From assembly GCA_025677605.1 (NCBI GenBank), contig GCA_025677605.1_4110.1: a stretch of DNA of 64,000 nucleotides; one strand, written 5' to 3'. Below the pieces are notes generated by a model that saw only the letters and a list, made by a program, of their open reading frames with translations, did no database searches and was not told the origin of the DNA. Of this stretch, positions 35 to 26,946 are shown piece after piece. A program made the translations under genes and the position numbers. Within the stretch, counting starts at the first letter, position 1, and every line of letters begins with the position of its first letter. Origin of the DNA: a phage.

Positions 35-634
35 TCAATCCTCAGTGAGAATACAGTTCAGGTACGAACACAGTTCATCGTAGAAGAGTTTGTCCAGTAC
101 TGTAAGGTAACAGATACCGTTCTCTTTCATTGCAGCCTGTATCTTATCATAACCATTCACTGTGTCAAGGATTTCTTGATAAGATAATGCATCATCATTA
201 ACAGTACTACTCTGGAATGCCATTTCTTCTATGTTATCGATGGGTTCCTCATCGGAATTTAAGAAGCCTCCATTTTGATATATAATGTAATCTTCATTCC
301 ATGATTTAGTGAAACGGAGCAGGATAGGTTCATTAGCGAACATTTCGATATCACCACTTTCAATGTCGTATGAACAATATAGATTACAGTCTTCATCTAT
401 GAATTCTGCCATAAAGATTGCAGTTCGAGAACCATCATATACATAAACTCCAGTTTTGTTCATCTCAACATCAACTGCCATTCCATTTTTGAATTGCATT
501 CGAATCGTGATTTTAAGACTTTGGAGTATGTTATTTTCTGTATCTTTAACACTATACAATCCACGATATCGTAACCACAAATCTTTGATAGTACTTAAAG
601 AATTGATTAAGTCTTCATTGGGATCTTTTTTCAT
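35..634 (-). CDS. FQ-motif family protein (uncharacterized tandem paralog)
   Basis: 199 aa ORF; motif EEMAFQSSTV near C-terminus; ATGA overlap with next gene. Confidence 0.6.
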   Translation of the reverse strand: MKKDPNEDLINSLSTIKDLWLRYRGLYSVKDTENNILQSLKITIRMQFKNGMAVDVEMNKTGVYVYDGSRTAIFMAEFIDEDCNLYCSYDIESGDIEMFANEPILLRFTKSWNEDYIIYQNGGFLNSDEEPIDNIEEMAFQSSTVNDDALSYQEILDTVNGYDKIQAAMKENGICYLTVLDKLFYDELCSYLNCILTED

Positions 635-1248
635 TCAGGTATTACCATATTGTTAATTAGTGTTTCTTTCTTGATGCAATCAGGCTTGATATAAATGAAC
701 ATCTTTCGTAGACTCTTCACTTTGTACCAATCATTCAGTACTGAAACCATAAGCCATAATTCTTCTGGTGTAGTGGTAACCTCTGTGATTACACCCATCT
801 GAAACAATGCACCCTTACAATCTTCAAGTGATTTCAGATCAGTCTTATACCCAGATTCAATATCCATTAGTGTTTTAGTTTTGGCATCATATGTGATGAA
901 CGATTCTTTTAGCGTTTTTCTTCCATCATTTAAGGTTAAAAACACTGGATTACCTGGACTAAACATGCACTCTTCAAATTCAGGAAATAAATCATGTGCT
1001 TCTTCATCATCGTCTTGGGTTAATTCCAGTACTAATTCATCTGTATAGATATTACAAATCCCAACGCTATATCTATTATACAGCGTTGTATATTGTGTGG
1101 GTTTTCCCTTTTTTGATAGCTTGAGTTCACTTTTCGGACCGTACTTGTCAAATAGTGTTTGTTTAGCTCTAATTAAATCTGGTGCAATGTTTAGTAAATC
1201 ACGTAGTGCTTTCTCGTACTTAACATACTCTGTTCTAATGTTAGTCAT
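631..1248 (-). CDS. FQ-family-like protein (diverged)
   Basis: 205 aa ORF in array; weak motif KGALFQMGVI. Confidence 0.5.
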   Translation of the reverse strand: MTNIRTEYVKYEKALRDLLNIAPDLIRAKQTLFDKYGPKSELKLSKKGKPTQYTTLYNRYSVGICNIYTDELVLELTQDDDEEAHDLFPEFEECMFSPGNPVFLTLNDGRKTLKESFITYDAKTKTLMDIESGYKTDLKSLEDCKGALFQMGVITEVTTTPEELWLMVSVLNDWYKVKSLRKMFIYIKPDCIKKETLINNMVIPE

Positions 1249-1780
1249 TGTAACCCTCTAAAAAATAATCTAATGTATCAAGTACATCACTATCAAAAAA
1301 ACAATTATTAACTACAACGATACCAGTATTATGTTCTAAATCATAACATTTATCCAGTACATTGATGCATTCATTGTACTCAATGATATCATGAAGAGTA
1401 CTGTGCTGAAAGTGTTCTTCTTCAGTGTACTCACAGTAATTAATATCAACACTGAACGATTGGTCGTTTCTTTTGCACGGATATAATTTAGTAGACTTTC
1501 GTCCAGACCATGTAATTGAATAACAACCAATCGAATTCTGTGGGATTTGTGTACCAGCATGAAGCATAATGTACAGAGCTTGCGAACTGTATGATTCAAC
1601 GTACAAACGGTTCTTATCTGCATTCATAACACAACCATCAATTGACATGCTTAGTGAATGTGACATTCTACTGGCTTTCCTGATGCCACGGCAGAAATTA
1701 ACATAACGCTGACGTAAGCTGTTAACTTTCTCAGGCCATAGCTCAAATTCTTTAGTATTTGATAATGTTGCAATGTGCAT
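1241..1780 (-). CDS. FQ-motif family protein
   Basis: 179 aa; motif EEHFQHSTLH. Confidence 0.6.
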   Translation of the reverse strand: MHIATLSNTKEFELWPEKVNSLRQRYVNFCRGIRKASRMSHSLSMSIDGCVMNADKNRLYVESYSSQALYIMLHAGTQIPQNSIGCYSITWSGRKSTKLYPCKRNDQSFSVDINYCEYTEEEHFQHSTLHDIIEYNECINVLDKCYDLEHNTGIVVVNNCFFDSDVLDTLDYFLEGYND

Positions 1781-1782
1781 TA

Positions 1783-2385
1783 TTATTCCTTAATAACTGG
1801 TATAGCAGACCAAATTCGTTTCATTAGTTCATCTTCTAATACCACATCAGTACTGATCTTTTTGTAGTTCATTGATAATAGAAAATTACATTTCAGTTCT
1901 GATTTTAATTTTTCATAAAGATCAATGTTCATATACATTTCTTCATACGAAGGTAAAGAATGAATTAATGAATTTTGAAAATACCATTCTTCGCTGAAAT
2001 CTTTCACTTCAACACTTTTGATATTCTTAAATGAATCCTTATCAAAATAATATGAAACATCAGAACCATTATAATGTGAAAATGTTTTGAATAATTTTAT
2101 TTCATTTGTTCTACGAAGAATTCTTTCATAGGACAGAATTTTACTATCTTCTAATTCACCATGAAGTATCAGTGAAATATCAAAATCATTTGCAAGTCCA
2201 GCACCAAGGCGTTTGAATGCTAGTGTAATTCGTTGTTCACATGCCGAGATTTCAATCCTGTAAAAATCAGTTGCATACGTTAACATAGAGTATGGGAGAT
2301 GCAACTTTTCATTATTAGAAATACTTTTAGCTAACGTAATGACAGGGTTAAGCATTTTATTAAGAATAGGCATGTCAATGATCAT
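1783..2385 (-). CDS. FQ-motif family protein
   Basis: 200 aa; motif EEWYFQNSLIH. Confidence 0.6.
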   Translation of the reverse strand: MIIDMPILNKMLNPVITLAKSISNNEKLHLPYSMLTYATDFYRIEISACEQRITLAFKRLGAGLANDFDISLILHGELEDSKILSYERILRRTNEIKLFKTFSHYNGSDVSYYFDKDSFKNIKSVEVKDFSEEWYFQNSLIHSLPSYEEMYMNIDLYEKLKSELKCNFLLSMNYKKISTDVVLEDELMKRIWSAIPVIKE

Positions 2386-2386
2386 A

Positions 2387-2890
2387 TCATAATTCTCTTA
2401 GTTTTTTCAATACATAGTGTAGTACTTCATCTTCATTTACATACGATGTGTACATGAGAAATTTGCAACAAGTACTGTTAAGATAGCACATGTAGGTGAA
2501 CATTGCACTATAATTATTCACAGTACTGTTCTGAAATTCAACTTCATCAATTTCACCCAATGATACAGGTCGCATGTTGCAATCTACACCATCAATTTTT
2601 ACAACAGTAGTTCCTGGATGAAAGACTGCGGATTGTGAACCTATGGTGCTTGTATCGAAACTTGGTGCATCATAGATAGGACTATTGCTATCAAAGAGCA
2701 TGAAAATGTCATGGTCTAAACCTCTTTTCTGCTCAAATACAACTCGGATCATACCATCTTTTTGTATTTTAAGAATAATATCTGGAGCCAGTTCGAATCG
2801 ACCATATTGTTCATTGATATATTTTTCTTCAAGAATTTTATGCAATTCCACAAAGTCTTTAGTACTAAAGTGTTCCATCATATCCCTCAA
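2387..2890 (-). CDS. FQ-motif family protein
   Basis: 167 aa; motif EVEFQNSTVN. Confidence 0.6.
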   Translation of the reverse strand: MRDMMEHFSTKDFVELHKILEEKYINEQYGRFELAPDIILKIQKDGMIRVVFEQKRGLDHDIFMLFDSNSPIYDAPSFDTSTIGSQSAVFHPGTTVVKIDGVDCNMRPVSLGEIDEVEFQNSTVNNYSAMFTYMCYLNSTCCKFLMYTSYVNEDEVLHYVLKKLREL

Positions 2891-3323
2891 CTAATTTTGT
2901 AATTTCTGCTCTTCGTACATCAATGTCATGAGCAAATGATATGGATGTGAAACCACGTTCCGCTGCAATGGCTCTCAACTGTAGGAGAAGTAATAACGGA
3001 TATATCACTTCATCAGAATACAAAGTACTTAATTGAAATATGGTTGCTTCATCAATCTCAGTACTTAAATCTATACTTTTAATATCAATGATTAACTGTG
3101 TATTGAAATACCATACATTGTCATTGACATAATCTATAGTAGTATTATCCATTACACTATAATCAATGTATCTTTCATTTGACCATAATGTCATCATATC
3201 ATCGCCGTCCGATGGATAGCTTACGTCAAACCATGAACCTGATTTTCGAGCTTTACCATTATCCAGTTCATTGAGGCAGTACTGGATTAACTTTTTCAGT
3301 AATTCGTAATCGTCTTTATTCAT
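2865..3323 (-). CDS. FQ-motif family protein
   Basis: 152 aa; motif EATIFQLSTLY; true start may be internal. Confidence 0.55.
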   Translation of the reverse strand: MNKDDYELLKKLIQYCLNELDNGKARKSGSWFDVSYPSDGDDMMTLWSNERYIDYSVMDNTTIDYVNDNVWYFNTQLIIDIKSIDLSTEIDEATIFQLSTLYSDEVIYPLLLLLQLRAIAAERGFTSISFAHDIDVRRAEITKLVEGYDGTL

Positions 3324-3801
3324 TGCATTTCCAGAATATAGGATGTTTGTTAAGTGTTTGAAATATCATATCAAATGTAAATTTGTAATAAGAATAAACA
3401 CCGAAATTAATTGATATAGAATTTAAATTAGTTTCATGCACCATAGCACTATGTATCAGAACTGCATTTCTATGAAACTCATTATCAAGGCTCAATTCAG
3501 CCATAAAATCATCTAAAGTTCTGTCGCCGTTCTTTTTCTCGTATATGATTTCACCACTTGGTTCAATGAATACTGAACTTTCCCTTGATAGGATCATGAT
3601 TCGTTTCTCAATGACATTTTGAGATTCTTGACAGTTGAGTTCACAAAATGTCCATGAGCCACAGAACACAGCGATAATGTCGTTGTTTTTCACGAAGTTA
3701 AAGGGAATGCCATCAATCATTATCTGTACTTCGTGCACAAATTTATGAGAATACTTCTCAAGAATTTTACAAAATTTAATAACGTCTGCTGGATTTAACA
3801 T
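3316..3801 (-). CDS. hypothetical protein in FQ array (motif not evident)
   Basis: 161 aa ORF, tightly coupled in array. Confidence 0.5.
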   Translation of the reverse strand: MLNPADVIKFCKILEKYSHKFVHEVQIMIDGIPFNFVKNNDIIAVFCGSWTFCELNCQESQNVIEKRIMILSRESSVFIEPSGEIIYEKKNGDRTLDDFMAELSLDNEFHRNAVLIHSAMVHETNLNSISINFGVYSYYKFTFDMIFQTLNKHPIFWKCNE

Positions 3802-4355
3802 TGGATTGCCTTAATATGTTCAATCATTGCCTTGGAGTTAGTACTCATGTACTCAAATATATCATCATTCATGAGTTCTGTCAAGTTCAATTCAACCGTA
3901 CATCCATCTGGTAAGTTCTTCTGACAGAACGGAGCCAGTACTGCACCGTACAGTACATACGGATCATCAATAATTAAACTCTTCTGGAAGCAATCACAAT
4001 CCATATCTTCTTCATTATCGAAGTAAGTACTGATATCTATTGCAGTACTATCTTTACACATCAACTCTACATCACCTTTTTTAATTACTACACGCTTTGT
4101 CTTGGTATTGCGTAATCGGGTGTATTCTTTTATGTGTCGTTGTTGTGTATTGATTTCAATGATATCTTTGTGGTTGTACGTTATTGTGAAGTGCATATCA
4201 TTATTCAAATCACCACTCAGAAAAAAATTAAGATCTCTTAGTACAGTGTGATTGACTTTAATGTATTCACCTTCACGAATTAAACTCAGTGCAGCTACAC
4301 AATCTTCAATAAACTTCTCAAGGAACTTCCCTCTATAGTAAAGACTATATTTCAT
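3795..4355 (-). CDS. FQ-motif family protein
   Basis: 186 aa; motif DCDCFQKSLII. Confidence 0.55.
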   Translation of the reverse strand: MKYSLYYRGKFLEKFIEDCVAALSLIREGEYIKVNHTVLRDLNFFLSGDLNNDMHFTITYNHKDIIEINTQQRHIKEYTRLRNTKTKRVVIKKGDVELMCKDSTAIDISTYFDNEEDMDCDCFQKSLIIDDPYVLYGAVLAPFCQKNLPDGCTVELNLTELMNDDIFEYMSTNSKAMIEHIKAIQC

Positions 4356-4930
4356 GAGAACTCCCCAGTATTGTTGATAAGACTGTCCAGACCTTCATGA
4401 ATTCTTTTAAATTCACTACGTTTAAAACGATGAACAATTTGTTGTAATGGACAGTATTTGTCTTTCTTATCCAGTTCATGATTGACGATTGTACTGAAAA
4501 GTAATAAATCCAATTCGTTAGTACTGTACATAGTACTTAACTGGAATAGTTCTTCTTCTATAGTACTACTGTTAAGATTAATCTTTGGAATTTTTTTACC
4601 TGAAATAACAATCCCTGCAAATTCACTTGTCCCTGGAACTTCAGCATTTCCTCCAATAATATAATCGTAGTTAATGTACCCATCGTTATTGGTTAAATCT
4701 TCTTTATTGTACTTAATTATCAGAAAGACACGTAGATCATTCATCGAAACTACTGCATGATCATACATACCTTCCTGGTCTTTAGTAATCGCCAAACGCA
4801 TATATGGGAGATTAAATGTCTTTTTAGTTTTACATAAATCACTATTAAGAATAGCATTCACTTTCAAAACCATCTTAGTGTAATATTGATACTCTTCGGA
4901 CATGTAATTATAAAGATTTGAGAAAGGCAT
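4352..4930 (-). CDS. FQ-motif family protein
   Basis: 192 aa; motif EEELFQLSTMY. Confidence 0.6.
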   Translation of the reverse strand: MPFSNLYNYMSEEYQYYTKMVLKVNAILNSDLCKTKKTFNLPYMRLAITKDQEGMYDHAVVSMNDLRVFLIIKYNKEDLTNNDGYINYDYIIGGNAEVPGTSEFAGIVISGKKIPKINLNSSTIEEELFQLSTMYSTNELDLLLFSTIVNHELDKKDKYCPLQQIVHRFKRSEFKRIHEGLDSLINNTGEFS

Positions 4931-5480
4931 TTAATTCCTCCAATAATTCTTCTTGTGTTTCAGTACTTTCATTGTATAAATTATTGAAAGCGGAACACTC
5001 CCCACTACCAAGTTGCATTGATAGTTGATATACAAAATCAGCTTTAGCTATCATATCATAACCAGGAAGCAACGACAACTGGAAAAGATATGCTTCTCGC
5101 TCTTCTGGATTTTGTAGCTCAGGTGCAATATGAAGATATTCTTCATCATCATAATAATCATCGTACAAATTTCTGACGATTAATTCGTTAGTTTCTTTGA
5201 GTTTATTCACAGTAAGACTACAATCAGAAACTGAACCCAAAAATTTACTCTCTCTGCCTGATGCCACATAAGAAGCATCAACTGACCATATATTTTTGGT
5301 TTTATGTTGAATGCAGTGTTGTATTTGGATATTAGCATAACGATACAAAGTACTGCAATCAAAAACTAATCGGTACATTGGATTGTTGAAGTAATGAAAA
5401 ATATTCTCTGTTCTTTTTTGTTCATCTAACTTATGAGTAAGTTCTTCTAGTACTTTAAAAATATCAATTAGTGTTTTCAT
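4908..5480 (-). CDS. FQ-motif family protein
   Basis: 190 aa; motif EAYLFQLSLL. Confidence 0.6.
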   Translation of the reverse strand: MKTLIDIFKVLEELTHKLDEQKRTENIFHYFNNPMYRLVFDCSTLYRYANIQIQHCIQHKTKNIWSVDASYVASGRESKFLGSVSDCSLTVNKLKETNELIVRNLYDDYYDDEEYLHIAPELQNPEEREAYLFQLSLLPGYDMIAKADFVYQLSMQLGSGECSAFNNLYNESTETQEELLEELNAFLKSL

Positions 5481-6018
5481 GTTCTTTTCTCGTTTGTGCG
5501 TAGTTTTTCAAGTCCTTGAGTAATACTACTAATTGATCATCAGTGAGTAATGATGCTGTTGCACTATATGACATATAATAATTATTGAGATTGAAATCAA
5601 ATTTATAGTTACGTGCTAAAGCTTCAATCGTAAGTGCATCAGTGATTAATTTATCGTGAGTTACAGAACTCTGGAAATTTTGTTCTTCTAAATTCTCAGT
5701 ACTGAACAACGCAATAGGATCATATGATGGTTCTTTGTAATCCACTGCCTCTTTCATTCGAGGATTACGTGAAATAAAAGCCCAAGAACTGTCATATGAA
5801 AAATCAACAACACAGTCTTCCTCATCACCTTCATGTGGGTAAACGCACAGAATAGTTTTATTTTCTTCTGTGAACATCTGCTGCGTTGCAATACCCTCTC
5901 CTGTGTATTCAATTTCATAATCGAAACCGATTCTTAATTTACGTCCCTGTGAATTACACGTTTCAAGAAGTTTTCCCAGTTCGTTGTAAATTTGTAAGAT
6001 TAATAGGTAATTGTCCAT
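5464..6018 (-). CDS. FQ-motif family protein
   Basis: start moved to ATG at 6016-6018 (MDNYLL) with RBS gaggat; ORF-track extension reads through the upstream terminator; motif EEQNFQSSVTH. Confidence 0.6.
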   Translation of the reverse strand: MDNYLLILQIYNELGKLLETCNSQGRKLRIGFDYEIEYTGEGIATQQMFTEENKTILCVYPHEGDEEDCVVDFSYDSSWAFISRNPRMKEAVDYKEPSYDPIALFSTENLEEQNFQSSVTHDKLITDALTIEALARNYKFDFNLNNYYMSYSATASLLTDDQLVVLLKDLKNYAQTRKEHENTN

Positions 6019-6054
6019 ATGATATCCTCGGTTAAATAATATTAAAATAATAGC

Positions 6055-6086
6055 AAAGAAAAAAGCCAGAGTCAATACCCTGGCTT
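6055..6086 (-). terminator. rho-independent terminator after MCP-like gene
   Basis: hairpin GCCAG...CTGGC followed by T-run on minus strand, directly downstream of the 6092 stop. Confidence 0.55.
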
Positions 6087-6091
6087 TAAAA

Positions 6092-7504
6092 TTATTTCAC
6101 GTTAAAAATCGAAGTGGCTTTTTGTAAAGCATGTACTTCAGACTGTTGATTGTCTACCATCATCATTGTGTCCTTGACATGCTCCGCATTTTGCTGTACT
6201 GAACGGTCCATCATATTAACACTCTCGGTAACCTGAAGGATTGCAATGCTTTGTTGTTCAGCCATTATAGCTAAATCATCAATGAACTGCAAGAGAGAAT
6301 CAACATTTTTTACAATAGAATCAATATCACTTGCAGTTTCGTTGATTTGTTCTATTCCTTGGTTGTTGTTTTTTACAGAGTTATCAACGATTTCTTTAAT
6401 TTCTTTACTACATGCATCACATTTCATTGCTAAGTTACGAACTTCCTGTGCAACAACAGAGAATCCACGTCCATGTTCACCCGCTTTAGCAGCCTCAATA
6501 CTGGCATTTAAAGAAAGAATATTAGTCTGGAAAGCAATAGTTTCTATATTTTTGAGTATAGCAACTATAGCATTAGAATCTTCTTTAATTCTATCCATCT
6601 GCTCTTTGCAATTATTAATACTTTCAATTGCATTAGTACTGGATTCTTTTGTAGTTTTAACCATACTTTTTGCAGTATTGGAGTTATCAGATGTATTTGC
6701 AGATGTAGCACTTAATTCTTCCATAGCAGCAGCGATTTGAGTAAGTGCCTGTCCTTGTGTTTCAGTTCTGAAAGCTAAATCATTACTTTTACTTTCGAGA
6801 TGATAGGAGTTGCTTTTCATTGACTGAACTGTAATTTGTACTTGTTCAATTGCCTCACGCATAGCTGATATTGTTTTACTAAAAGTCTGTGCAAATTCTG
6901 AGTTGAAATGATTATTTTGTATTTCTAAAGTAATATTGCCGTCTTCAGAATTCACCGAATGGGCAATTCGTTGAATTTCATCTGCTTCATTTGCATCTTT
7001 CTCCATAATATACGCAACGTACATCAGAACTATTGCCTGTACTACTACATATATTGCGTGCTCTATAATGTGCCATAACGAAATATGGTGAAAAGAAAAC
7101 ACGAATAATATTGGAATTCCAGCACCCTGTAACAATCCAAATAATAAATGATGTATAGCAATCAGTACTGAACCTGCTAATACACAACGCCAGTCACGCC
7201 ATACAATCAATAAACTTAAAAAGACAAAAACTGTAAAGTGCCATTCCACCATCCCTAAGCCAAGATGTATTAGTAACGCACTCCAGCACATCACATTTAT
7301 ACTTAACAACGTTCGAGTGAACGCATTACTTTCAACAAATAGTAAAGGAGTTAGCATTACTAATAATAAAACTGCACCGATTAGTGCAATAATAAAACTA
7401 CCATGAACAACACCGGAAACTAAAGTAACAGCAAATAAAGCCCCTATACAACATAGTACTAAATTATCGGCTTTTTTGCGTATATTTTCTAAATTACTTT
7501 TCAA
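6092..7504 (-). CDS. methyl-accepting chemotaxis protein-like (N-terminal multi-helix His-rich membrane domain, C-terminal MCP signalling domain)
   Basis: 470 aa; signalling-domain signature [37 protein letters not shown]; about 6 hydrophobic helices in first 170 aa. Confidence 0.8.
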
Positions 7505-8049: not shown

Positions 8050-8080
8050 AAAATACGCTCTCTTTTAAATAGGTTACAAT

Positions 8081-8109
8081 ATTCTAACACTCTACATTAC
8101 TAATGTCAA
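8081..8109 (-). promoter_or_regulatory. sigma70-like promoter for 7501..8049 + MCP unit
   Basis: minus strand TTGACA, 17 nt spacer, TAGAAT; about 30 nt upstream of ATG at 8049. Confidence 0.45.
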
Positions 8110-8116
8110 CCTATAA

Positions 8117-8141
8117 ACGAAAAAAGACCCATCAGGGTCTT
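8117..8141 (-). terminator. rho-independent terminator (possibly bidirectional)
   Basis: hairpin GACCC-atca-GGGTC flanked by A-run and T-run; overlaps stop of 8132..8683. Confidence 0.5.
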
Positions 8142-8683
8142 TTAAATGCTCGTAAGTCTCTCAGAATGTTTGGTAGAGTGCCTTGTTCCATTACAGAATT
8201 CAGTACATTAAGATCCATTGTAAGATAGAAACCATCAGGGATGTAATCACGCACTAACTTATCCAACTCAATGATATCCATTGTTAACTGATCATATAGA
8301 GTACTGTACTGGAAAAGCACCCCATCGTCAACATTTAAATCTATTAAGTTATCACCGTGATTGCATTGGCAAAAGTTATTAGCAAGATTTTTATGTTTAA
8401 TGCTGCTTATGTACACATATGGATAACGTGTGAGTACACGATTCTGTGCCTCCGAACAACCATCTGCAATTTCTTCATCTGATAACTCAGGGTGCAAAAG
8501 AAACAATGAACTATCACTAATGTACAAAGTACCTATAGAACCGTTTTTATTATTACTGTGTCGAATATAACATGAACCAAGATTTGATATAGGTTTTATA
8601 TCTTGTAGTACAATAGGAAAAAAGTTAATAATAACTTTAGATAGATCTTTTAGTACTGGGTTTATTGTTAATGGTAGACTCAT
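8132..8683 (-). CDS. FQ-motif family protein
   Basis: 183 aa; motif DGVLFQYSTLY. Confidence 0.6.
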   Translation of the reverse strand: MSLPLTINPVLKDLSKVIINFFPIVLQDIKPISNLGSCYIRHSNNKNGSIGTLYISDSSLFLLHPELSDEEIADGCSEAQNRVLTRYPYVYISSIKHKNLANNFCQCNHGDNLIDLNVDDGVLFQYSTLYDQLTMDIIELDKLVRDYIPDGFYLTMDLNVLNSVMEQGTLPNILRDLRAFKRP

Positions 8684-13112: not shown

Positions 13113-13168
13113 GATATGATCCTTTTCGTATTAGATGAAAAAGATTATATCATGCACAGAAGGAGGTG

Positions 13169-16706: not shown

Positions 16707-16742
16707 TGTAACACAGTACAGGCTCTTGTCAATAGCATGAAC

Positions 16743-18094: not shown

Positions 18095-18577
18095 TCAACC
18101 CCTGTGAAGTTTATTAATACCGTTATCTACAGTTTTCTTTACGTATCTGTAATCGAAATAGAAGTTCTCAGAACCAATACTTTTAAAGTACCACATAATT
18201 ACAATACAATCAAGTTCTTCTTCATTGTATACAGTACTTTGTTGGAAGTAATACTCTTCACTATCCCACGGACCATCCAGTACTGCACACGGAATTATAA
18301 TGTCATCGGTATCGTGGACAGTACTGTAGATGGTAATATCTCCACCATTAACATAGACCATGTACTCATTATGCATATCAATGAAACATTCATAATCATT
18401 AGGGTCGGTATCTAGTACGCACGTTTCTGTATCTGGGAAGTCATTATCAATGAGGTTATCAGAGACATAATATTGAGTACTTGTGTCTTTGAAAATACCG
18501 TAAACTGAACCTTCTTTTGCCATATTCATGTACTCATGAATCTTCTTTGCTTCTTGTAATGCTCTTTTTAAACTCAT
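18095..18577 (-). CDS. FQ-motif family protein (close paralog triplet, copy 3)
   Basis: 160 aa; DGPWDSEEYYFQQSTVY; N-terminus MSLKRALQEAKKIHEY. Confidence 0.65.
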   Translation of the reverse strand: MSLKRALQEAKKIHEYMNMAKEGSVYGIFKDTSTQYYVSDNLIDNDFPDTETCVLDTDPNDYECFIDMHNEYMVYVNGGDITIYSTVHDTDDIIIPCAVLDGPWDSEEYYFQQSTVYNEEELDCIVIMWYFKSIGSENFYFDYRYVKKTVDNGINKLHRG

Positions 18578-18748: not shown

Positions 18749-19075
18749 TCAGTACTCCAGATTAATAGAATAAATGCAAGAACGAACTATTTGGTCCTTG
18801 TTATCTCTGTAGTACTTTTGTAATGCAAGGTACATAAAGAAATCGATTTCTTTATCCCATACTAATGATTCCTGAAATATAAAACTTTCATAGTTCTCCA
18901 TGTATTCACATTCGATGTAATTAGGAAGCTTATCTGTTTTGGATACGTACTCAATATTACATTCATTGAAATCACGAATAATCAATATAGGTGTTTTATT
19001 CAATGTAGTAAAAAAGCACGTATAAGTAAAACCACTTCCCATTGTACTTGAAGAAACATATATTTTAGTATTCAT
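18749..19075 (-). CDS. FQ-motif family protein
   Basis: 108 aa; motif YESFIFQESLVW. Confidence 0.55.
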   Translation of the reverse strand: MNTKIYVSSSTMGSGFTYTCFFTTLNKTPILIIRDFNECNIEYVSKTDKLPNYIECEYMENYESFIFQESLVWDKEIDFFMYLALQKYYRDNKDQIVRSCIYSINLEY

Positions 19076-19430: not shown

Positions 19431-19787
19431 CTATAGATTGAAATAGTACTGAACAGTCTTGTGCTTATCTTGAGTTAATTCTATCATGCACTTCGCAGAG
19501 TATTCTTTCATGATATTCTGAATACCAATAACTTCATCTAGTGTACAAATATATTTCTTATCGAACACTAATGACTCCTGAAATAGAGTCGCCTCATCCA
19601 TTTCTGTATAGTCCAGTAGAGGTTCATTAACACCACCACCCACTCGACCGTAATCAATAAAAGAAAATCCATTTGAGGTGTACTTAATATATTGGTCCAA
19701 CGAATGATTGGTATCACCCTTAACGAGATTACAATAGAACTCAACCTTTTTGTAGAAAAAACTGTGAATAGCAAAATCATTGCTCAT
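19431..19787 (-). CDS. FQ-motif family protein
   Basis: 118 aa; motif DEATLFQESLVF. Confidence 0.6.
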   Translation of the reverse strand: MSNDFAIHSFFYKKVEFYCNLVKGDTNHSLDQYIKYTSNGFSFIDYGRVGGGVNEPLLDYTEMDEATLFQESLVFDKKYICTLDEVIGIQNIMKEYSAKCMIELTQDKHKTVQYYFNL

Positions 19788-20000
19788 AATAACCTCTACT
19801 ATAATTAATAAGGTAAACTACAATATAAGGAGCACGTTCGGCGGCGGGGTATTTTTTTGTTTAAGGAAACATGAACTGTACTCTGAAAAACACAATATAA
19901 AATTTTATATTAAACATATACCTTAACATGTTTTTCAGCGAAAATTTTTTTGACCCCCCAAAACGCCCCCAAAAACAAGCCTATATTTATCATTTTAAAA

Positions 20001-20567
20001 TTACCCCTTTTCCGCGACCTTATCAAACACGTACTGTATGTACTGATTCAATGCAATGAGATCGATATCTCTGTCAAATCTCAACGTTAACTTCTCTGTC
20101 AACTCCCCGAAGGTATCATAATAATGCTTAACAAAATAACGATATCGTATTGAATTATAATCGTGCAATGTACTGTACTGAAACACTACATCAGGACTAT
20201 ATGGCATCAAATCAATAAGCTCACTTACTTTTAATTTCTCATTTTCGCCATTATTTTTAACTGTTATATATTCATTTGAACTGAACCATGCACATGATAC
20301 ATCTGAACAAATTGATGTTGTACTGTAAAATCTATCTGTACTCACAAATAATACACTATGTGATTTGTTGGATTTTCTTTCGTAAATCGATAAATCCGAC
20401 ATAAGCGTAATGATTGGTTCGTGTCGAAATTTATTATGCTGGTACGTTTCCTGAAACGCATTCGGATTTTTGTAAATCCTATCTACAATTAAATACAACC
20501 CCTTGATGTATTCTAAATCATCTTCTATCGCTTTGCATGTACTTTCTATGTCCTGAAGGTCCAGCAT
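20001..20567 (-). CDS. FQ-motif family protein
   Basis: 188 aa; motif PDVVFQYSTLH. Confidence 0.6.
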   Translation of the reverse strand: MLDLQDIESTCKAIEDDLEYIKGLYLIVDRIYKNPNAFQETYQHNKFRHEPIITLMSDLSIYERKSNKSHSVLFVSTDRFYSTTSICSDVSCAWFSSNEYITVKNNGENEKLKVSELIDLMPYSPDVVFQYSTLHDYNSIRYRYFVKHYYDTFGELTEKLTLRFDRDIDLIALNQYIQYVFDKVAEKG

Positions 20568-21103
20568 TACTCCCCCTTAATCTCTTTGAGATCTTTTACT
20601 AACCTATCGTACCACGTTAAAGCTAAAAAGAAATTCGTTTTCACATTAGCACGTAATACATTATATACTTGCTGCACCTGTAAAACATAAGGATCTTGTA
20701 CTAAGGACTCCTGAAAATATTCTTCAGGACTCAGGATGTTAGGATTCAAGGTTGCAATATCAACGTGCTTTGTTAAACCAAAAAAGGTTTCTTCCTCTCT
20801 CTTGCTCATATCCAAATAACGAATCCAATTCACTGGAGCGAACTCTTCAGATGCTGATGTAGCCGATGTAATAGCATTGAACAAAAGACAATACTCTAAC
20901 TGCATCTTCTCACCTACAGCGTGCATTACCGTATCTCTCCTGTAATACACAATAGAGGGATACTTTTCAATATCGCTCTTAGGCTCAAGCCATCCTTCCT
21001 TGTGCTTAGGATAGATGTGGTCAAAATCCCCAGCCTCAAACGCCTGTACGATTTTTACTAAATTGTCAGCGAACTCGTACTCAAAATGTTTGTGCTGGAT
21101 CAT
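20567..21103 (-). CDS. FQ-motif family protein
   Basis: 178 aa; motif PEEYFQESLVQ. Confidence 0.6.
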   Translation of the reverse strand: MIQHKHFEYEFADNLVKIVQAFEAGDFDHIYPKHKEGWLEPKSDIEKYPSIVYYRRDTVMHAVGEKMQLEYCLLFNAITSATSASEEFAPVNWIRYLDMSKREEETFFGLTKHVDIATLNPNILSPEEYFQESLVQDPYVLQVQQVYNVLRANVKTNFFLALTWYDRLVKDLKEIKGE

Positions 21104-21130
21104 CTAAATCACTCCCGTCTTTGTTGTATT

Positions 21131-21166
21131 GTGTGTTATTGCATGTTATTGCATGTTATTGCGTAT
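21131..21166. repeat. short tandem repeat (TGTTATTGCA x3)
   Basis: tgtgttattgcatgttattgcatgttattgcg in intergenic spacer. Confidence 0.6.
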
Positions 21167-21804
21167 TATAACACAATCTCTTTTAACTTCAAAATGAAAT
21201 CTTCATATACTTTTATCTGAAAATGCGGACTCTGTGCACTGAAACTAAACCCAGGTTCAATCAATTTCTTGTACTCATTTGCATATTTGCACAACTTCAG
21301 GATTTCGGTAGGGTCCACCATATCCTTCTGTACTAAGGACATTTGAAAAAGCACTTCCTCTACACCCTCGTACTCTTGACCTGCAATGTAACATATGTCA
21401 TCGTCTAACGATAATGATATGAACGTCTTTGTACTTATTACATTACCATCTTTTGAAACACCATAATCTGCAACTGAATCCACAAAGGAATCCGGCTTAG
21501 ATGAACCTGCTATGTCGCAAATGTACTTGTCAATGTATGTGATGTTATTGTTGTTATCGAATATACCAAATGCTAATGACGTGTCAAATACTTCCCTGAA
21601 ACCAATTCTGTCACTACCGATAACTAAAACTAATTTACCACAGGATGCACTGTATCTGGATGCGGAATCAAATGGAATCTCCAATTTTGAATTCTCAGGG
21701 AAAATAGCATTGAACTTCTTTAGCATTTCAAACATATAAGGAACATGAGGCTCCATGAACTTCATCACCTCATACGGTGAAGCATTTCTGGGAAAATTAT
21801 GCAT
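21166..21804 (-). CDS. FQ-motif family protein
   Basis: 212 aa; motif EEVLFQMSLVQ. Confidence 0.6.
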   Translation of the reverse strand: MHNFPRNASPYEVMKFMEPHVPYMFEMLKKFNAIFPENSKLEIPFDSASRYSASCGKLVLVIGSDRIGFREVFDTSLAFGIFDNNNNITYIDKYICDIAGSSKPDSFVDSVADYGVSKDGNVISTKTFISLSLDDDICYIAGQEYEGVEEVLFQMSLVQKDMVDPTEILKLCKYANEYKKLIEPGFSFSAQSPHFQIKVYEDFILKLKEIVL

Positions 21805-22366
21805 ATGTACTTACCCTTAAATTTTCGAAATCCCATACATCACTGATTGTACCATTGTGCCTGTAATCATAATATTGTACTAATACATTATACAATAACT
21901 TCAACGATACAAATTCATGATTCCACGGGGCTTTATTCTCATGAACACATTTAGAGATATAAGGTATCATATATAAAGCAACCATCTCTAATGGTTCATG
22001 TACACATTGCTTTTGAAAATATTCTTCTTCTTGCATACAATGCTCAGGAATAATTAGATCACCATGTTTACCGAAGACATATGAACCTACTGTGTATTTT
22101 TTCACATCGCAAGCGAACCATATTGTACTATCCGAAACAAATGGAATGATACCATTATTGTTTGCAATGTACATCATATGGTAAGAGCTATTTGACTTGT
22201 TAAATACCTCTATACTTTTAATATTACTACAAATCGCGTATTCAATACAATCAATAATCTTATCTTTAAATACACCAATTTCATTGAATGTCATTGCTTT
22301 CTGTACTTGCGATGTTTGCGATGTTTGCATGGGGTTCTCCTTAAAAATGTTCAGGTATATTAGCAC
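21797..22366 (-). CDS. FQ-family-like protein
   Basis: 189 aa; EEEYFQKQCVH; N-terminal QTSQTSQ from 9-bp tandem repeat. Confidence 0.55.
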   Translation of the reverse strand: MLIYLNIFKENPMQTSQTSQVQKAMTFNEIGVFKDKIIDCIEYAICSNIKSIEVFNKSNSSYHMMYIANNNGIIPFVSDSTIWFACDVKKYTVGSYVFGKHGDLIIPEHCMQEEEYFQKQCVHEPLEMVALYMIPYISKCVHENKAPWNHEFVSLKLLYNVLVQYYDYRHNGTISDVWDFENLRVSTYA

Positions 22367-22410: not shown

Positions 22411-22908
22411 TTACGATACAGGCTCGGTTGGGTAAAAGGACTCATATACATTTTTCATTTGCTGGAAATAAAAATATACATGATTCTTAAGCACACCATT
22501 CTCATAAAGCATCTTGTATATTGCGTAGAAAAAGATATCAATTTCTTCATGTATTGTACTGTACTGGAACCACAACTCCGGTGTCAAGGGTTCTGGACTG
22601 TATTTGATTTCCAACAAAGCATCATCCATTGGCTTATCACGTCCTGGATACATATACCAAAGGTCATCTCTTTCCAGACGAAGATCATCTTCATCAGGAT
22701 ATACATTGTCAGGAGCAAAATTTAAAAAACTAAAAAGCACTTTACCTGAATTTGATTCTTCTAACTGATTGTTAATATAATCATATTTGTGATTTATTGA
22801 AGCATATCCTTTTCCTTCATATGCTTTCATTATATTGTATACACCTTCAATGTACTTAACGTACTGTACAGCACTCTCTAAACTAAATTCCACTTTACAT
22901 TTTTGCAT
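22411..22908 (-). CDS. FQ-motif family protein
   Basis: 165 aa; motif PELWFQYSTIH. Confidence 0.6.
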   Translation of the reverse strand: MQKCKVEFSLESAVQYVKYIEGVYNIMKAYEGKGYASINHKYDYINNQLEESNSGKVLFSFLNFAPDNVYPDEDDLRLERDDLWYMYPGRDKPMDDALLEIKYSPEPLTPELWFQYSTIHEEIDIFFYAIYKMLYENGVLKNHVYFYFQQMKNVYESFYPTEPVS

Positions 22909-23279
22909 AATAAAATAATCTCAACTAAAGCAAGAACTGTATTGAATTCCACTATACTTGTAATTCCCTGAAGGTACATGTACTTTGCTATTACATATTT
23001 CTGTACTAAATTATCATTCTTCTTGAATTCATCAAACGCATCATTACAACGTGTCATGTATTCTGTACTCAAAAATATCTTATGCATCTCTAATGCACTC
23101 TGATAATATGCATACAACTCACGAATATCTATACTACGTAAATCACGTTGTTCGTACTTGTGATACGGAATAGCTTCAATTTCAATATTATAAAACCATT
23201 CTGTTAACTTATTAATATCAAATGTATTATTGTACTTCGAGGTCATAATATTTCCTTTCCCATTCGGATACATGGGCAT
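22878..23279 (-). CDS. hypothetical protein (no FQ motif)
   Basis: 133 aa ORF. Confidence 0.45.
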   Translation of the reverse strand: MPMYPNGKGNIMTSKYNNTFDINKLTEWFYNIEIEAIPYHKYEQRDLRSIDIRELYAYYQSALEMHKIFLSTEYMTRCNDAFDEFKKNDNLVQKYVIAKYMYLQGITSIVEFNTVLALVEIILLCKNVKWNLV

Positions 23280-23535
23280 TAAAATTCATAACAGCTTTCT
23301 GTATCTTTTTTAATAATAACACATCATATCCACCTGTGTCAATCACTAATTGCTGTTGAAACAATTCTTCGTCGGATAATGTATTGAAATCTACAAAATA
23401 ATCTGTGACTTCGTTATCATTTAAATGTGCCATGTACCAACCTGAACTACATGAATAAATCAAATTCCAACCGTCTTCATCGCCTTCTAATTCAACATAA
23501 ATCATATCTTTTGTATAAAGCATTCTATACTTCAT
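23227..23535 (-). CDS. FQ-family-like protein
   Basis: 102 aa; DEELFQQQLVI. Confidence 0.55.
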   Translation of the reverse strand: MKYRMLYTKDMIYVELEGDEDGWNLIYSCSSGWYMAHLNDNEVTDYFVDFNTLSDEELFQQQLVIDTGGYDVLLLKKIQKAVMNFNAHVSEWERKYYDLEVQ

Positions 23536-24040
23536 AACTATATCCTTGCATCAAAATATCATAAACTGCTTGAATGTCAGGAACTTTTATATAAAATTTA
23601 AAACCCTTAATTAAAGGATTCGCGTACAATGAACTGAATAACTTTAGATAATGCATTTGACGAGGACTATATAATAACGATTTCTGAAATAATTCAGCAC
23701 TACAATCTGTACTAATATCAATTAAATCAATTCGTTCTTCTACTTCATCATCTTGTTTCAAATCATAAAAGAAATAATCGTTTGTGTTTACCCACAAATA
23801 CCCTTCTTTATTTTCGTATACAACAGGAGATGTTTGTACCGGATTGGCTTGGGTAAATGCTGCAATACAAACGTTAACATTCCCTGCATTATTTGCATTG
23901 TGAAACATAAACGATAATTTACCATGCCTATCTTCTATGCGTAATTCATCTATATCAATGTACTTATGTATAGGATGATTATTTTTGAGCATAAGCATTA
24001 TTGTACTAATCTTGTGCGTTAATAATTCAATTTCATTCAT
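23525..24040 (-). CDS. FQ-motif family protein
   Basis: 171 aa; motif SAELFQKSLLY. Confidence 0.6.
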   Translation of the reverse strand: MNEIELLTHKISTIMLMLKNNHPIHKYIDIDELRIEDRHGKLSFMFHNANNAGNVNVCIAAFTQANPVQTSPVVYENKEGYLWVNTNDYFFYDLKQDDEVEERIDLIDISTDCSAELFQKSLLYSPRQMHYLKLFSSLYANPLIKGFKFYIKVPDIQAVYDILMQGYSYEV

Positions 24041-24046
24041 ATATTA

Positions 24047-24430
24047 TTACCTATAGCATTTGAGCACTGTAACCAATCCCTCTGCATTCTTGAAATGCAT
24101 TAAAGACAATGAACTATCAACGTACTGCAATGATATAATTACATCCTGTTCTGTGTGTTTGAATAAAAATTCCTGTACCGAATTCGTACCATAATACATG
24201 TACTTCGTTGCTTCAATCTGCAAATAAGGCACTTCTGTATTGTGTAAAAAGATATTGATTATTTCATTATTCTGTAATCTGCAATCAAATTTGTATGTTT
24301 CATATAACGGTACATCCGATGATGCCTGTACTGCCTGTACTGCCTGTGCTGCATGAGCGGTGTTTATAAATGATAAAAACACAAATGTTAAAATGAATAT
24401 GATTTTATTGAACATGTTTTGTTTCCTCAA
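24047..24430 (-). CDS. putative secreted protein (signal peptide)
   Basis: 127 aa; N-terminal hydrophobic signal FILTFVFLSFINTAHA then AQAVQAVQA repeat. Confidence 0.5.
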   Translation of the reverse strand: MRKQNMFNKIIFILTFVFLSFINTAHAAQAVQAVQASSDVPLYETYKFDCRLQNNEIINIFLHNTEVPYLQIEATKYMYYGTNSVQEFLFKHTEQDVIISLQYVDSSLSLMHFKNAEGLVTVLKCYR

Positions 24431-24624
24431 TAATGTTTGTACTTGTGTAAAATTCTATCCTGTACTGAAAGATGCTCAAATATAATTACACTCAAATAAT
24501 AATTGTAATCATTGATACCACCCCTCAAATGCATATTGTAATACAGCTTAATACTATCTAATAATGAATCCTGTAATGCATGTAATGCATTTAATGTCTT
24601 TGCATCTATCATCATCTTTCCCAT
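24427..24624 (-). CDS. hypothetical small protein
   Basis: 65 aa ORF, coupled. Confidence 0.4.
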   Translation of the reverse strand: MGKMMIDAKTLNALHALQDSLLDSIKLYYNMHLRGGINDYNYYLSVIIFEHLSVQDRILHKYKHY

Positions 24625-25230: not shown

Positions 25231-25433
25231 TTAGACTCCTTTGGTGTGCATACTATCTCTGTTCGTAAAGCCCTTATGTATGCATCAACGAATTGTGGCT
25301 GTGCTCTCGTTCCTAGATAAAATAATAAATCGAACTCTGCCATTTTAACATTAAAAGGATCTGAATCTACATTTCGAATAAACTGTCTGTACTTCAATTC
25401 ATATCCGTTAGGCATCTTCTTGTATACTATCAT
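25215..25433 (-). CDS. LGT-motif family small protein
   Basis: 72 aa; FYLGTRAQPQFV. Confidence 0.5.
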   Translation of the reverse strand: MIVYKKMPNGYELKYRQFIRNVDSDPFNVKMAEFDLLFYLGTRAQPQFVDAYIRALRTEIVCTPKESKCTKM

Positions 25434-25743
25434 ATTCTATACAATCACCTCTTTTAATCGAATCCCAAACTTCTTTCATCCTCTTCTGTAAACTGCACAT
25501 AATATCTATATCAAACATATAAGGGTCATGAATTAGACTGTACTGAAATAATTCATCTTCCTGCATAAGAGAAAGATCCTGAAGCAACTCGTACTTACCT
25601 AAACTCCTGGGACTCAAATAAGCAAAATATTCTTTACCGTCCTCAAAAACATAATGTACTTCATGATTCATGTACTTCTTGTAATTCTCATGCGTATAAG
25701 CAAATATACAACCGGAATTAATTCGGTGAATGTTGAATTTCAT
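25408..25743 (-). CDS. FQ-motif family protein
   Basis: 111 aa; motif EDELFQYSLIH. Confidence 0.6.
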   Translation of the reverse strand: MKFNIHRINSGCIFAYTHENYKKYMNHEVHYVFEDGKEYFAYLSPRSLGKYELLQDLSLMQEDELFQYSLIHDPYMFDIDIMCSLQKRMKEVWDSIKRGDCIEYDSIQEDA

Positions 25744-25752
25744 ATTAATCTC

Positions 25753-26109
25753 TTATACGTAAATTGGATGAATATTTTGAAGGAAATGCTTAGAAATATT
25801 CATACATGATATCATCTGCCTTTGTACTTCCTTCATCTCTTTGTATGTCAACCCAAAAGAATCATCGTATACTAACATGTACTGAAACTCTTCTTCTTCA
25901 GAGATATCAACTAGATTCGGTACTGCTATCGTATTTTCATATGATTTGATACCTTCTACCCAATAGAAACAATTATCAACTTTATTGTACTCAAATATCT
26001 TAACCCCAGGCCCACCCTGTACATTGGTCAACGCAATGAAACATGTATTCGCTCTTTTTATACAATTGATCTTACGCATTATCGCATTATCTCCATCTCT
26101 CTCCGTCAT
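25753..26109 (-). CDS. FQ-family-like protein
   Basis: 118 aa; EEEEFQYMLVY. Confidence 0.55.
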   Translation of the reverse strand: MTERDGDNAIMRKINCIKRANTCFIALTNVQGGPGVKIFEYNKVDNCFYWVEGIKSYENTIAVPNLVDISEEEEFQYMLVYDDSFGLTYKEMKEVQRQMISCMNISKHFLQNIHPIYV

Positions 26110-26332
26110 CGCAAGAGTACTGGTACGTTGTCGTTAGGGTAGGAATCATGTTCGTAATCGGCATATTATTCACAATAACCGTTACGGGCATCATAACCGT
26201 CTCTTTTCTACTCTGTCCTGTCTTTGTGCAATTCATCTTGTGCATTTCATCTGAATCCAGATACGCTAATACAAACGGTGCAATCCCAAGAACAATACAC
26301 AAGACGATAAGGAAATTTAAAAATTTTAACAT
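26087..26332 (-). CDS. small membrane protein
   Basis: 81 aa; N-terminal hydrophobic helix FLNFLIVLCIVLGIAPFVLAY. Confidence 0.45.
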   Translation of the reverse strand: MLKFLNFLIVLCIVLGIAPFVLAYLDSDEMHKMNCTKTGQSRKETVMMPVTVIVNNMPITNMIPTLTTTYQYSCDDGERWR

Positions 26333-26370
26333 AATCTGTACCCTATGATTAACGTTAGTGTACTATAGCA

Positions 26371-26601
26371 CTACAATAGAGTACTGTCAACTGCTTTGTT
26401 CTCTATTATACTCATTAAACCCCAAATTAGATAACGAACACTATCAGCTTGATAGTTAGTACCTACTGTGCATTTTAAAATTAACTCATCTTTCAGTACT
26501 GCACGTTCTTCTTGGGATATAGGAAGAGAATTTATTTGTTTTATTTGTGGTTGTAAAGTATTAATAAGCTTGCAGTACTCTTCGAATGATAATCTTTTCA
26601 T
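26371..26601 (-). CDS. LGT-motif family small protein
   Basis: 76 aa; KCTVGTNYQADSV. Confidence 0.5.
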   Translation of the reverse strand: MKRLSFEEYCKLINTLQPQIKQINSLPISQEERAVLKDELILKCTVGTNYQADSVRYLIWGLMSIIENKAVDSTLL

Positions 26602-26604
26602 GGT

Positions 26605-26946
26605 TCAGTACTCAATAATGTGTTCTTCATAAGCACTATTAGGCTCCTGTTTAGTTTCTTTTATTAGTACTATCATCTTATGTGCCAATGGCATAGGAAA
26701 CTCTAAATCCCATACTAATGATTCTTGAAAGTATTCTTCTTCAGATAAAGTACTTAAATCTTCAATGTCAATGTGTTCGTACATGTTATATTTGTAATCA
26801 GCAAAAGATATATAAAAACCTCTTGTAGAATCGTAAGTAATCGTGAATGGCTTACCTTTGTAGTCCATTACATCTTTACATAGACTGCATTTGATATATG
26901 TACTTGCAAATGATTTATAAACCTTAAGTTGAATATTAGTTTTCAT
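26605..26946 (-). CDS. FQ-motif family protein
   Basis: 113 aa; motif EEEYFQESLVW. Confidence 0.6.
   Translation of the reverse strand: MKTNIQLKVYKSFASTYIKCSLCKDVMDYKGKPFTITYDSTRGFYISFADYKYNMYEHIDIEDLSTLSEEEYFQESLVWDLEFPMPLAHKMIVLIKETKQEPNSAYEEHIIEY

Follow-up and report, generated by a model that had tools for sequence, protein, structure and literature searches.

The window analysed here is a stretch of phage DNA of 64,000 nucleotides (NCBI GenBank assembly GCA_025677605.1, contig GCA_025677605.1_4110.1), and the subject of this study is a tandem array of small genes that occupies positions 35-26,946 of it. By megablast the window was placed in Asteriusvirus, the 121Q/PBECO4/phAPEC6 group of ~350-kb Escherichia coli myoviruses, and over its first 25 kb it shares 98.6% identity with Escherichia phage A4 (ON286972.1), in whose record the counterparts of the genes under study are labelled 'hypothetical protein'. 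All genes from 35 to ~54 kb are carried by the minus strand, and at ~54 kb both the GC skew and the coding strand flip. No RNA genes were found in the window by Rfam and tRNA scans.

Strings of the [FYLWM]FQxS type were found by regular expression in most minus-strand open reading frames (ORFs) of the array region. Membership was assigned by an iterative hidden Markov model (HMM), which was seeded from these strings and run to convergence over all 243 ORFs of the window that reach 50 aa. The converged family has 41 members, all on the minus strand (-) and all within 35-26,946. They are given below with the E value obtained when each was left out of the model, followed by one ORF that stands outside the member count.

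35-634 (-): family member, 199 aa (…EEMAFQSSTV…), E 1.2e-6; phrog_30625
1241-1780 (-): family member, 179 aa, E 2.7e-6
1783-2385 (-): family member, 200 aa, E 9e-11
2387-2890 (-): family member, 167 aa, E 4.7e-5
2865-3323 (-): family member, 152 aa, E 2.4e-12
3795-4355 (-): family member, 186 aa, E 2e-5
4352-4930 (-): family member, 192 aa, E 1.3e-7
4908-5480 (-): marginal member, 190 aa, with LFQLS; leave-one-out failed, E 2.8e-4 with the 123-sequence HMM
5464-6075 (-): family member, 203 aa, E 3.4e-6
8132-8683 (-): family member, 183 aa, E 2.2e-7
8680-9312 (-): family member, 210 aa, E 9.5e-10
9317-9931 (-): family member, 204 aa, E 2.6e-11
9906-10412 (-): family member, 168 aa, the sole basic one (isoelectric point, pI, 9.3), E 3.3e-12
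10422-10892 (-): family member, 156 aa, E 7e-14
10889-11371 (-): family member, 160 aa, ortholog in A4 only, elsewhere at most 31% identity (tblastn), E 1e-16
11359-11790 (-): family member, 143 aa, E 2.9e-5
11790-12128 (-): family member, short form, 112 aa, E 3e-8
12112-12615 (-): family member, 167 aa, E 9e-16
12615-13112 (-): family member, 165 aa, motif variant YFQYC, E 2.7e-14
13169-13705 (-): family member, 178 aa, E 2e-11
13708-14046 (-): family member, short form, 112 aa, structure modelled (see below), E 1e-12
14046-14459 (-): family member, 137 aa, E 1.7e-11
14411-15061 (-): marginal member, 216 aa; leave-one-out failed, E 0.13 with the 123-sequence HMM
14958-15506 (-): family member, 182 aa, E 1.3e-10
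16137-16706 (-): family member, 189 aa, E 2.8e-7
16743-17189 (-): family member, 148 aa, E 8.8e-13
17195-17650 (-): family member, 151 aa, youngest sub-cluster, 53% identity to 18095-18577, E 6e-19
17650-18093 (-): family member, 147 aa, youngest sub-cluster, adjoins the site of an extra copy in A4, E 4e-19
18095-18577 (-): family member, 160 aa, modelled reference, E 5.6e-24
18749-19075 (-): family member, short form, 108 aa, E 2.4e-5
19431-19787 (-): family member, short form, 118 aa, E 2.2e-8
20001-20567 (-): family member, 188 aa, E 2e-9
20567-21103 (-): family member, 178 aa, A4 ortholog A4_348, E 1.8e-12
21166-21804 (-): family member, 212 aa, E 2.3e-8
21797-22366 (-): family member, 189 aa, YFQKQ variant, adjoins the site of the extra member A4_345, E 3e-10
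22411-22908 (-): family member, 165 aa, E 2.3e-5
23227-23535 (-): family member, short form, 102 aa, E 6e-7
23525-24040 (-): family member, 171 aa, E 3.7e-9
25408-25743 (-): family member, short form, 111 aa, E 1.3e-10
25753-26109 (-): family member, short form, 118 aa, EFQYM variant, E 4.5e-5
26605-26946 (-): family member, short form, 113 aa, E 2.4e-9
55116-55787 (-): possible highly divergent relative, 223 aa (EEDLFMYSTVID), outside the member count; its own phrog_29152

The tandem array is one real, specific, greatly expanded and unrecognised family. Leave-one-out HMMs recovered 39 of the 41 members at E 5e-5 to 6e-24, the two misses being 4908-5480 and 14411-15061. The strongest control on the reality of the family was an independent HMM whose 49 source sequences came from a RaK2-type Klebsiella phage and a metagenomic contig of an uncultured phage, with none from E. 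coli phages; it recovered 38 of the 41 window members at E <=1e-3 and matched no non-member ORF. In 1-27,000, 49 minus-strand ORFs reach 100 aa; 41 of them are members, and the coding sequence of the members totals 20.3 kb, 75% of that interval. They are 102-216 aa long, with 29-88 residues (median 50) from the invariant Phe of the shared motif to the C-terminus. A preliminary description of this DNA, made from the letters alone, had spoken of about 45 paralogs; the tandem family stands, while iterative and leave-one-out HMMs put the count at 39-41. The outliers at 25408, 25753 and 26605 that it had included were confirmed by HMM as members, but the one at 55116 is borderline only (hhalign probability 34%, HMM E 0.011-0.33). 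Searches by hhalign and unfiltered (--max) HMM were aimed at 55116 and at eight in-array ORFs starting at 631, 3316, 6092, 7501, 19075, 22878, 24047 and 24612; these eight showed no detectable kinship, 55116 alone being borderline.

Motif statistics were obtained from 123 family sequences of four phage genomes. The motif reads [ST]55%-[ED]90%-E75%-x-[YLF]66%-F100%-Q99%-x-S89%-[TL]92%-[VIL]88%-[YHFW]70%-[DN]57%, and its conservation, noted in the preliminary description, holds in an alignment. The residue after Q varies (Y 30%, L 17%, Q 11%, E 11%, N 9%), the conserved S lying one position further on, and the position equivalent to P3 of the tobacco etch virus (TEV) protease site is Y in 31%, L in 24% and F in 11% of the sequences. 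Outside the motif the divergence is extreme, with a mean column identity of 8-12%; BLASTP at 1e-3 detects 34 of the 820 window member pairs, and the median pair is below detection. In long members, profile positions 1-146 of the HMM were aligned to residues 1 to ~160, near full length, and the short members (102-118 aa) are without the N-terminal helix segment. To see the family as a conserved C-terminal module joined to unrelated N-termini is therefore only partly right, as the long-form homology spans the full length.

AlphaFold2 (AF2) has been employed for two paralogs that are ~25% identical. The model of the 160-aa member at 18095-18577, obtained with a 39-sequence alignment (predicted local distance difference test score, pLDDT, 72.8; predicted template modelling score, pTM, 0.71), has an N-terminal helix, an ill-defined beta region and confident C-terminal helices (pLDDT 86-95, residues 91-140), the motif residues F111 and Q112 falling within helix 107-113. 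The model of the 112-aa short form at 13708-14046 (pLDDT 68.7, pTM 0.59) has five strands followed by two helices, with F64 and Q65 in the opening turns of helix 60-73. The order of the elements is identical in the two paralogs, and in both the motif opens a helix at pLDDT ~87-95. The models show a common predicted alpha/beta scaffold composed of an optional N-terminal helix, a beta-meander and 2-3 C-terminal helices, in which the motif is predicted to begin the first C-terminal helix as cap and core. An [ST]-E-E preceding a helix is the classic N-capping arrangement, and the invariant F-Q pair fits a packed core, as expected. Since the motif opens a confidently predicted helix after the beta-sheet, we infer from models of moderate confidence that it is structural core, made of helix cap and core-packing residues, and not a TEV-like site.

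Searches with 39 members or with the profile gave no above-threshold sequence match in Pfam, NCBIfam, PADLOC or PDB. Nor did the models yield a convincing match of fold; Foldseek against viral models returned uncharacterised 121Q, SP27 and RaK2 proteins only. In PHROGs, the 39 members are dispersed over 28 groups of unknown function, among them 9317, 12674, 13866, 34017 and 15629 (best E 1e-101, match cut-off E 1e-3). The first reading from the letters, that the family is one not recognised, was thus borne out, as the HMM and member searches of Pfam, NCBIfam and PADLOC gave no characterised domain and the PHROGs groups are all of unknown function. The acidic alpha-beta-alpha fold of p32/gC1qBP/MAM33 was hit with weak scores from a moderate-confidence model and is a lead only; Pfam gave no MAM33 match, and the long-form model fails to retrieve p32/MAM33 folds. 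Two genes of the family carry functional names in public records. A4_348 (A4 stretch 24035-24571, equivalent to window 20567-21103) is named 'DNA ligase', and its window ortholog is without a Pfam or NCBIfam match; phAPEC6 gp447c is named 'amidohydrolase 3' and is a family match in the HMM scan. Both names look spurious.

An exhaustive search of 1.84 billion cluster representatives with the profile yielded 160 clusters only (50% identity) at E <=1e-3, all of 55-212 aa. Sequences were returned for 146 of them, of which 139 hold an FQxS-like string and ~100 are less than 50% identical to any window member; the named sources are Asteriusvirus genomes or ~350-kb 'E. coli' contigs. The family HMM counted 44 members in 32 kb of A4, 38 in 33 kb of phAPEC6 and, in a RaK2-type Klebsiella phage, 31 over a 31-kb stretch, the latter 90-99% identical to genes of RaK2, K64-1 and Muenster. 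A 41-kb uncultured-phage contig (Logan ERR4503900) has at least 19 members in 20 kb, preceded, as in the window, by a run of small genes, and has no DNA match to any GenBank phage, which suggests that the RaK2/121Q clade has an unsampled relative. As arrays are found in E. coli, Klebsiella and uncultured phages, the array is a conserved hallmark of the RaK2/121Q clade and not a peculiarity of one isolate; the Klebsiella and uncultured-phage arrays show that it has been maintained over a long time. In A4 it takes up ~28 kb of 355 kb, ~7-8% of the genome.

The gene content of the array changes between close relatives. A4 and the window are 96-99% identical here, and over 28 kb they differ on a large scale only by two entire family genes, A4_355 and A4_345, which A4 has and the window lacks. 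At the first of the two indel sites, 23 bp are common to both alignment blocks and fall within conserved 5' coding sequence (MSLERAL…). Because neighbouring copies have this 5' sequence in common at the junction, unequal homologous recombination between neighbours is suggested at this one deletion junction, as read from the sequence. The youngest sub-cluster (35-53% identity) has three copies in the window, four in A4 and five in phAPEC6. Reciprocal orthologs in the phAPEC6 array at >=50% identity exist for 8 of the 41 members, seven of them at >=60%, and DNA of other Asteriusviruses covers 10-16% of the first 25 kb versus 40-78% of 32-54 kb. For retained orthologs the ratio of nonsynonymous to synonymous substitution rates (dN/dS) is 0.24-0.77 with a median of 0.32, that of adjacent small early genes being 0.36; the copies are therefore selected coding genes that diversify by turnover. 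Gene-wide positive selection was considered, and these values, which are like those of the neighbouring early genes, give no sign of it. Taken together, these comparisons show that the array evolves through birth and death of copies, the retained ones being under purifying selection.

The genes are tightly packed. At 37 of 58 junctions the ORFs overlap, seven times as ATGA and seven times by one base, and 50 of 58 junctions overlap or are spaced by <=15 bp; the tight packing in the preliminary description stands, while its coupling by ATGA overlaps applies to 7 of 58 junctions only. Its statement that internal promoters are lacking is contradicted by near-consensus sigma-70 sites in gaps of the array. 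Matches of at least 11/12 to the sigma-70 consensus number eight on the coding strand versus none on the opposite one, seven of the eight with an extended -10 TG, and three of the eight fall within the non-coding 3.2% of the array region. In the Klebsiella array the matches are six on the coding strand versus two on the opposite one. The three sites in gaps, found by consensus scan, and two hairpins are as follows.

13144-13172 (-): sigma-70 promoter-like site, 12/12, extended -10 TG, in gap 13113-13168
16705-16732 (-): promoter-like site, 11/12, TG, in gap 16707-16742
8081-8109 (-): promoter-like site, 11/12, TG, in gap 8050-8131, just downstream of a terminator-like hairpin
8122-8143 (-): terminator-like hairpin followed by a T-run
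6062-6087 (-): terminator-like hairpin of 11 pairs, after the chemoreceptor-like gene

On the same strand, upstream of the array, the stretch at 32-52 kb holds a dense field of genes of 60-150 aa, each with a consensus promoter and a hairpin. In T4-like phages, such consensus-promoter fields of small genes typify the early regions that host RNA polymerase transcribes. From the near-consensus sigma-70 promoters and the placement downstream of this block of small early genes, we infer that the array is probably transcribed early by host RNA polymerase.

The member proteins are mostly acidic, with a median pI of 4.9 and a net negative charge in 39 of 41, and a hydrophobic stretch reaching the transmembrane range is found in two of 41. 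In phAPEC6 the family is located at ~gp415c-gp466c, and mass spectrometry of its virions identified 62 proteins, none of them from gp348-gp548 (PMC7247149). Within the limits of that measurement, the family proteins are not components of the virion or of the inner body.

Several other features of the window adjoin these subjects. The chemoreceptor-like (MCP) gene at 6092-7504 (-), embedded in the array, encodes a Tsr-like homologue: the C-terminal half of the product is an MCP signalling domain (Pfam PF00015, 6e-37) that aligns to residues 216-517 of E. coli Tsr (PDB 6s1k, E 5.7e-36), and in the N-terminal half several hydrophobic stretches resemble transmembrane segments. The protein could disturb the chemotaxis arrays of the host. 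The gap at 21104-21165, upstream of the member at 20567-21103, holds ~4 tandem 10-mers (GCAATAACAT GCAATAACAT GCAATAACAC ACAATACAAC), and the largest gap of the array (19788-20000, 213 bp) has G-runs (GGGGGCGTTTTGGGGGGTC), a CCCCGCCGCC tract and no ORF.

In the field of small genes at 32000-52300 (-), which numbers dozens, a near-consensus promoter (AAAGTACTTGCA or TTGACA, N17, TATAAT) stands ahead of each gene and a GC-rich hairpin (GGGGAGAA…TTCTCCCC) directly before the ribosome-binding site, and AGTACTTGMMW occurs 20 times versus 0.45 expected; this looks like a highly regular early-gene cassette design. A non-coding element of ~100 nt is present there in five copies (-), at ~33640-33790, 36708-36858, 40005-40155, 42748-42898 and 50062-50212. 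In this element a hairpin (AAAGGGATTGACTCCGGTCAGTCCCTTT) that holds a -35-like TTGAC precedes TATTATA, after which comes the conserved GCCCAYMGGGTGC..GTGTA, bearing a small GCCC/GGGT stem; the element has no Rfam match and may act either as a terminator-promoter cassette or as a small RNA. Two intervals next to the ~54-kb switch of strand and GC skew, 52302-53288 (987 bp) and 53481-53776 (296 bp), are without ORFs and rich in CAGTACTG motifs, and may be a divergent regulatory or replication-related region. Beyond the switch, a second tandem paralog family of five genes (310-408 aa) lies at 57674-63456 (+), whose products have in common the N-terminus MLPFVRM(L/F)(E/D/K)YGN… and G/S/T/N-rich repeats. 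By ORF size and position only, these genes were taken as those of the 'DNA condensation' proteins with an RCC1 domain (gp003-010, gp549, gp551) in phAPEC6 virions (PMC7247149).

What the family does can be approached from these data by way of a working model. The RaK2/121Q jumbo myoviruses keep a lineage-specific multigene family of ~40 tandem genes for small, mostly acidic proteins, which host RNA polymerase would read early in infection from the array's own sigma-70 promoters. The paralogs would act as a repertoire of binders that share one scaffold and each neutralise or redirect a different host factor, be it a defence system or a housekeeping target, and the set carried by a phage would tune the strains that it takes over. 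That the family is such a host-directed binder repertoire for takeover or counter-defence, with its composition tuning host range, seems to us an evenly balanced proposition. The preliminary description had pointed to an anti-defence arsenal; the early-type promoters, the absence from virions, the gene turnover and the purifying selection are consistent with a role in host interaction, the function itself being a matter of interpretation. A more far-reaching form, possible though doubtful, would have a new fold expanded into the largest known single-family arsenal for counter-defence or host takeover of any phage, with each of ~40 paralogs per genome disabling a different factor and the set determining the strain range. 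If true, it would be the bacterial-virus counterpart of the multigene families (MGF) of African swine fever virus (ASFV) and of the Bcl-2-like families of poxviruses.

Several points weigh against a binder repertoire. The searches of Pfam, NCBIfam, PADLOC and PDB showed no similarity to any characterised anti-defence protein, and dN/dS shows no positive selection on the retained orthologs. The promoter calls rest on consensus scans, the evidence on virions comes from a related phage, in which mass spectrometry gave a negative result, and the AF2 models are moderate (pLDDT 69-73) with an ill-defined beta region in the long form. Moreover, a near-invariant motif in all copies could mean one common partner or co-assembly. 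This last point leads to an alternative that we consider unlikely, in which the paralogs are adaptors of a common hub: the motif helix would dock all of them on one shared partner, a host machine (RNA polymerase, protease) or a phage hub protein, and the variable parts would bring different cargo or targets. The logic of poxvirus ankyrin/PRANC or BTB-kelch proteins parallels this idea.

It is decidedly improbable that the array is genome filler, i.e., tandem duplications that fill an oversized, headful-packaged capsid, in line with the ratchet idea of Hua et al. (2017), with little function per copy or none. Hua et al. read the 121Q array as genome expansion by tandem duplication (PMC5646251), and copies do come and go between near-identical phages. 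Nevertheless, the frames are intact in all ~40 copies despite divergence below BLAST detection, the dN/dS of retained orthologs is ~0.3, and the motif and the array architecture are kept across E. coli, Klebsiella and uncultured phages, where neutral filler would decay. Pure filler is unlikely because of these intact frames, the purifying selection and the cross-genus conservation.

Tandem arrays are typical of immunity genes, and the proteins are acidic, which could suit immunity or antitoxin proteins against toxins as well as DNA-mimic anti-restriction proteins of the ArdA/Ocr type; one member has a sub-threshold ArdA match (E 0.074, 14 bits versus a cut-off of 27). Both are very improbable. 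No SUKH, Imm, ArdA or Ocr match above threshold was found in 39 members (Pfam, NCBIfam, PADLOC), the array has no toxin-like gene and its neighbours are without toxin domains, so that the early suggestion of immunity proteins found no support. As for a DNA mimic, the net charges of the members, -4 to -21, are of a kind common among early phage proteins and do not come near an Ocr-like charge density.

That E-E-x-Y-F-Q-x-S is a proteolytic site, cut by a TEV/3C-like or phage protease to free a C-terminal fragment of ~50 aa, is hardly credible. The likeness that had suggested a TEV/NIa-like processing site is a superficial match to E-x-x-Y-x-Q, with E at -4 in 70% and Q in 99%. The only protease listed in phAPEC6 virions is the 'prohead core scaffold and protease' (PMC7247149). 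The site was rejected on its own terms, as a TEV/NIa-type site (E-x-x-Y-x-Q before S/G) requires S or G after Q, whereas here that residue is variable, S comes one position late and the P3-equivalent Tyr is present in 31%. The segment is helical at top pLDDT (~87-95) in both predicted models, unlike an exposed extended site. The phAPEC6 virion protease is presumably T4 gp21-like, cutting after Glu in head proteins, and the family itself is not in virions; no protease domain was found among the window proteins scanned, the scan having been made within the window only.

The inner-body proteins of phiKZ are paralogous. That the family represents packaged internal proteins of this or the T4 internal type, ejected with the DNA, is barely conceivable: 121Q and phAPEC6 do have a bubblegram-visible inner body whose constituent proteins are unidentified (PMC5646251, PMC7247149), but 0 of 62 phAPEC6 virion proteins map to gp348-gp548, the region of the family, and the genes lie behind early-type promoters, outside the late structural modules.

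The array itself had been mentioned before. That of 121Q was given one sentence in 2017 by Hua et al., who argued for genome expansion (PMC5646251), that of phAPEC6 was echoed in one sentence in 2020 (PMC7247149), and the RaK2 paper reports that ~10% of RaK2 genes are paralogues. The window members match 121Q genes 349-388 and phAPEC6 gp415c-gp466c, so the arrays reported for these two phages are almost certainly the window's locus, the only array of such size seen there. The 121Q and phAPEC6 papers give no definition of the family, motif, fold, distribution, expression context or function, and describe the copies as 'very similar', whereas the median pair here is undetectable by BLAST. Our literature search found no functional study of the family and nothing that defines the family, its motif, fold, distribution or expression context. 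The ~25 kb devoted to one family had been called exceptional, which has to be tempered because the array had already been mentioned (PMC5646251, PMC7247149).

A family without a name in any database is kept as an array of 20-45 copies in jumbo phages of E. coli, Salmonella and Klebsiella, and such jumbo phages are under development for therapy. Should the members be host-specific effectors, ~160 natural variants (clusters at 50% identity) would be a compact library to be mined for new inhibitors of bacterial defence or essential processes, and host range could be read from the array. It further provides a clean case from nature of birth-and-death evolution and unequal recombination in a phage, which bears on the growth of jumbo genomes. 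With an HMM, a motif and a core fold to define the family, these questions can be tested, at least 28 PHROGs become one group, and spurious names such as 'DNA ligase' for A4_348 fall away.

The array is a viral tandem multigene family, as its copies have a common ancestry and their number varies from isolate to isolate. It resembles ASFV MGF110/360/505 and the poxvirus Bcl-2-like and ankyrin/PRANC families, which likewise consist of dozens of divergent tandem paralogs with one scaffold and a variable arm. Those families are early, non-structural and of isolate-variable copy number; the array likewise varies in copy number, and its products, absent from the phAPEC6 virion list, are predicted from promoter-like sequences to be expressed early. 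There is no sequence or fold kinship with them, and the host here is bacterial. A role of the ASFV MGF and the poxvirus families in host range and immune evasion has been demonstrated, whereas for the window family such a role is a proposal.

Two further systems are comparable in part. T4-type phages have hyperplastic early regions, or a 'plastic periphery', reportedly described by Comeau et al. in 2007, and these regions are similar in their small, non-essential-looking genes, strong sigma-70 early promoters, tight packing and variability among close relatives. They differ in being mosaics of unrelated ORFans, whereas in the window ~75% of 27 kb is one family. In the poxvirus 'gene accordions', said to have been described by Elde et al. 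in 2012, copy number shifts via recombination between tandem copies; similarly, whole-gene indels are seen here between phages that are 96-99% identical, with sequence common to adjacent copies at the deletion junction. An accordion amplifies a single gene for a time while selection is acute, unlike the window array, which is old, diverged and stable across genera.

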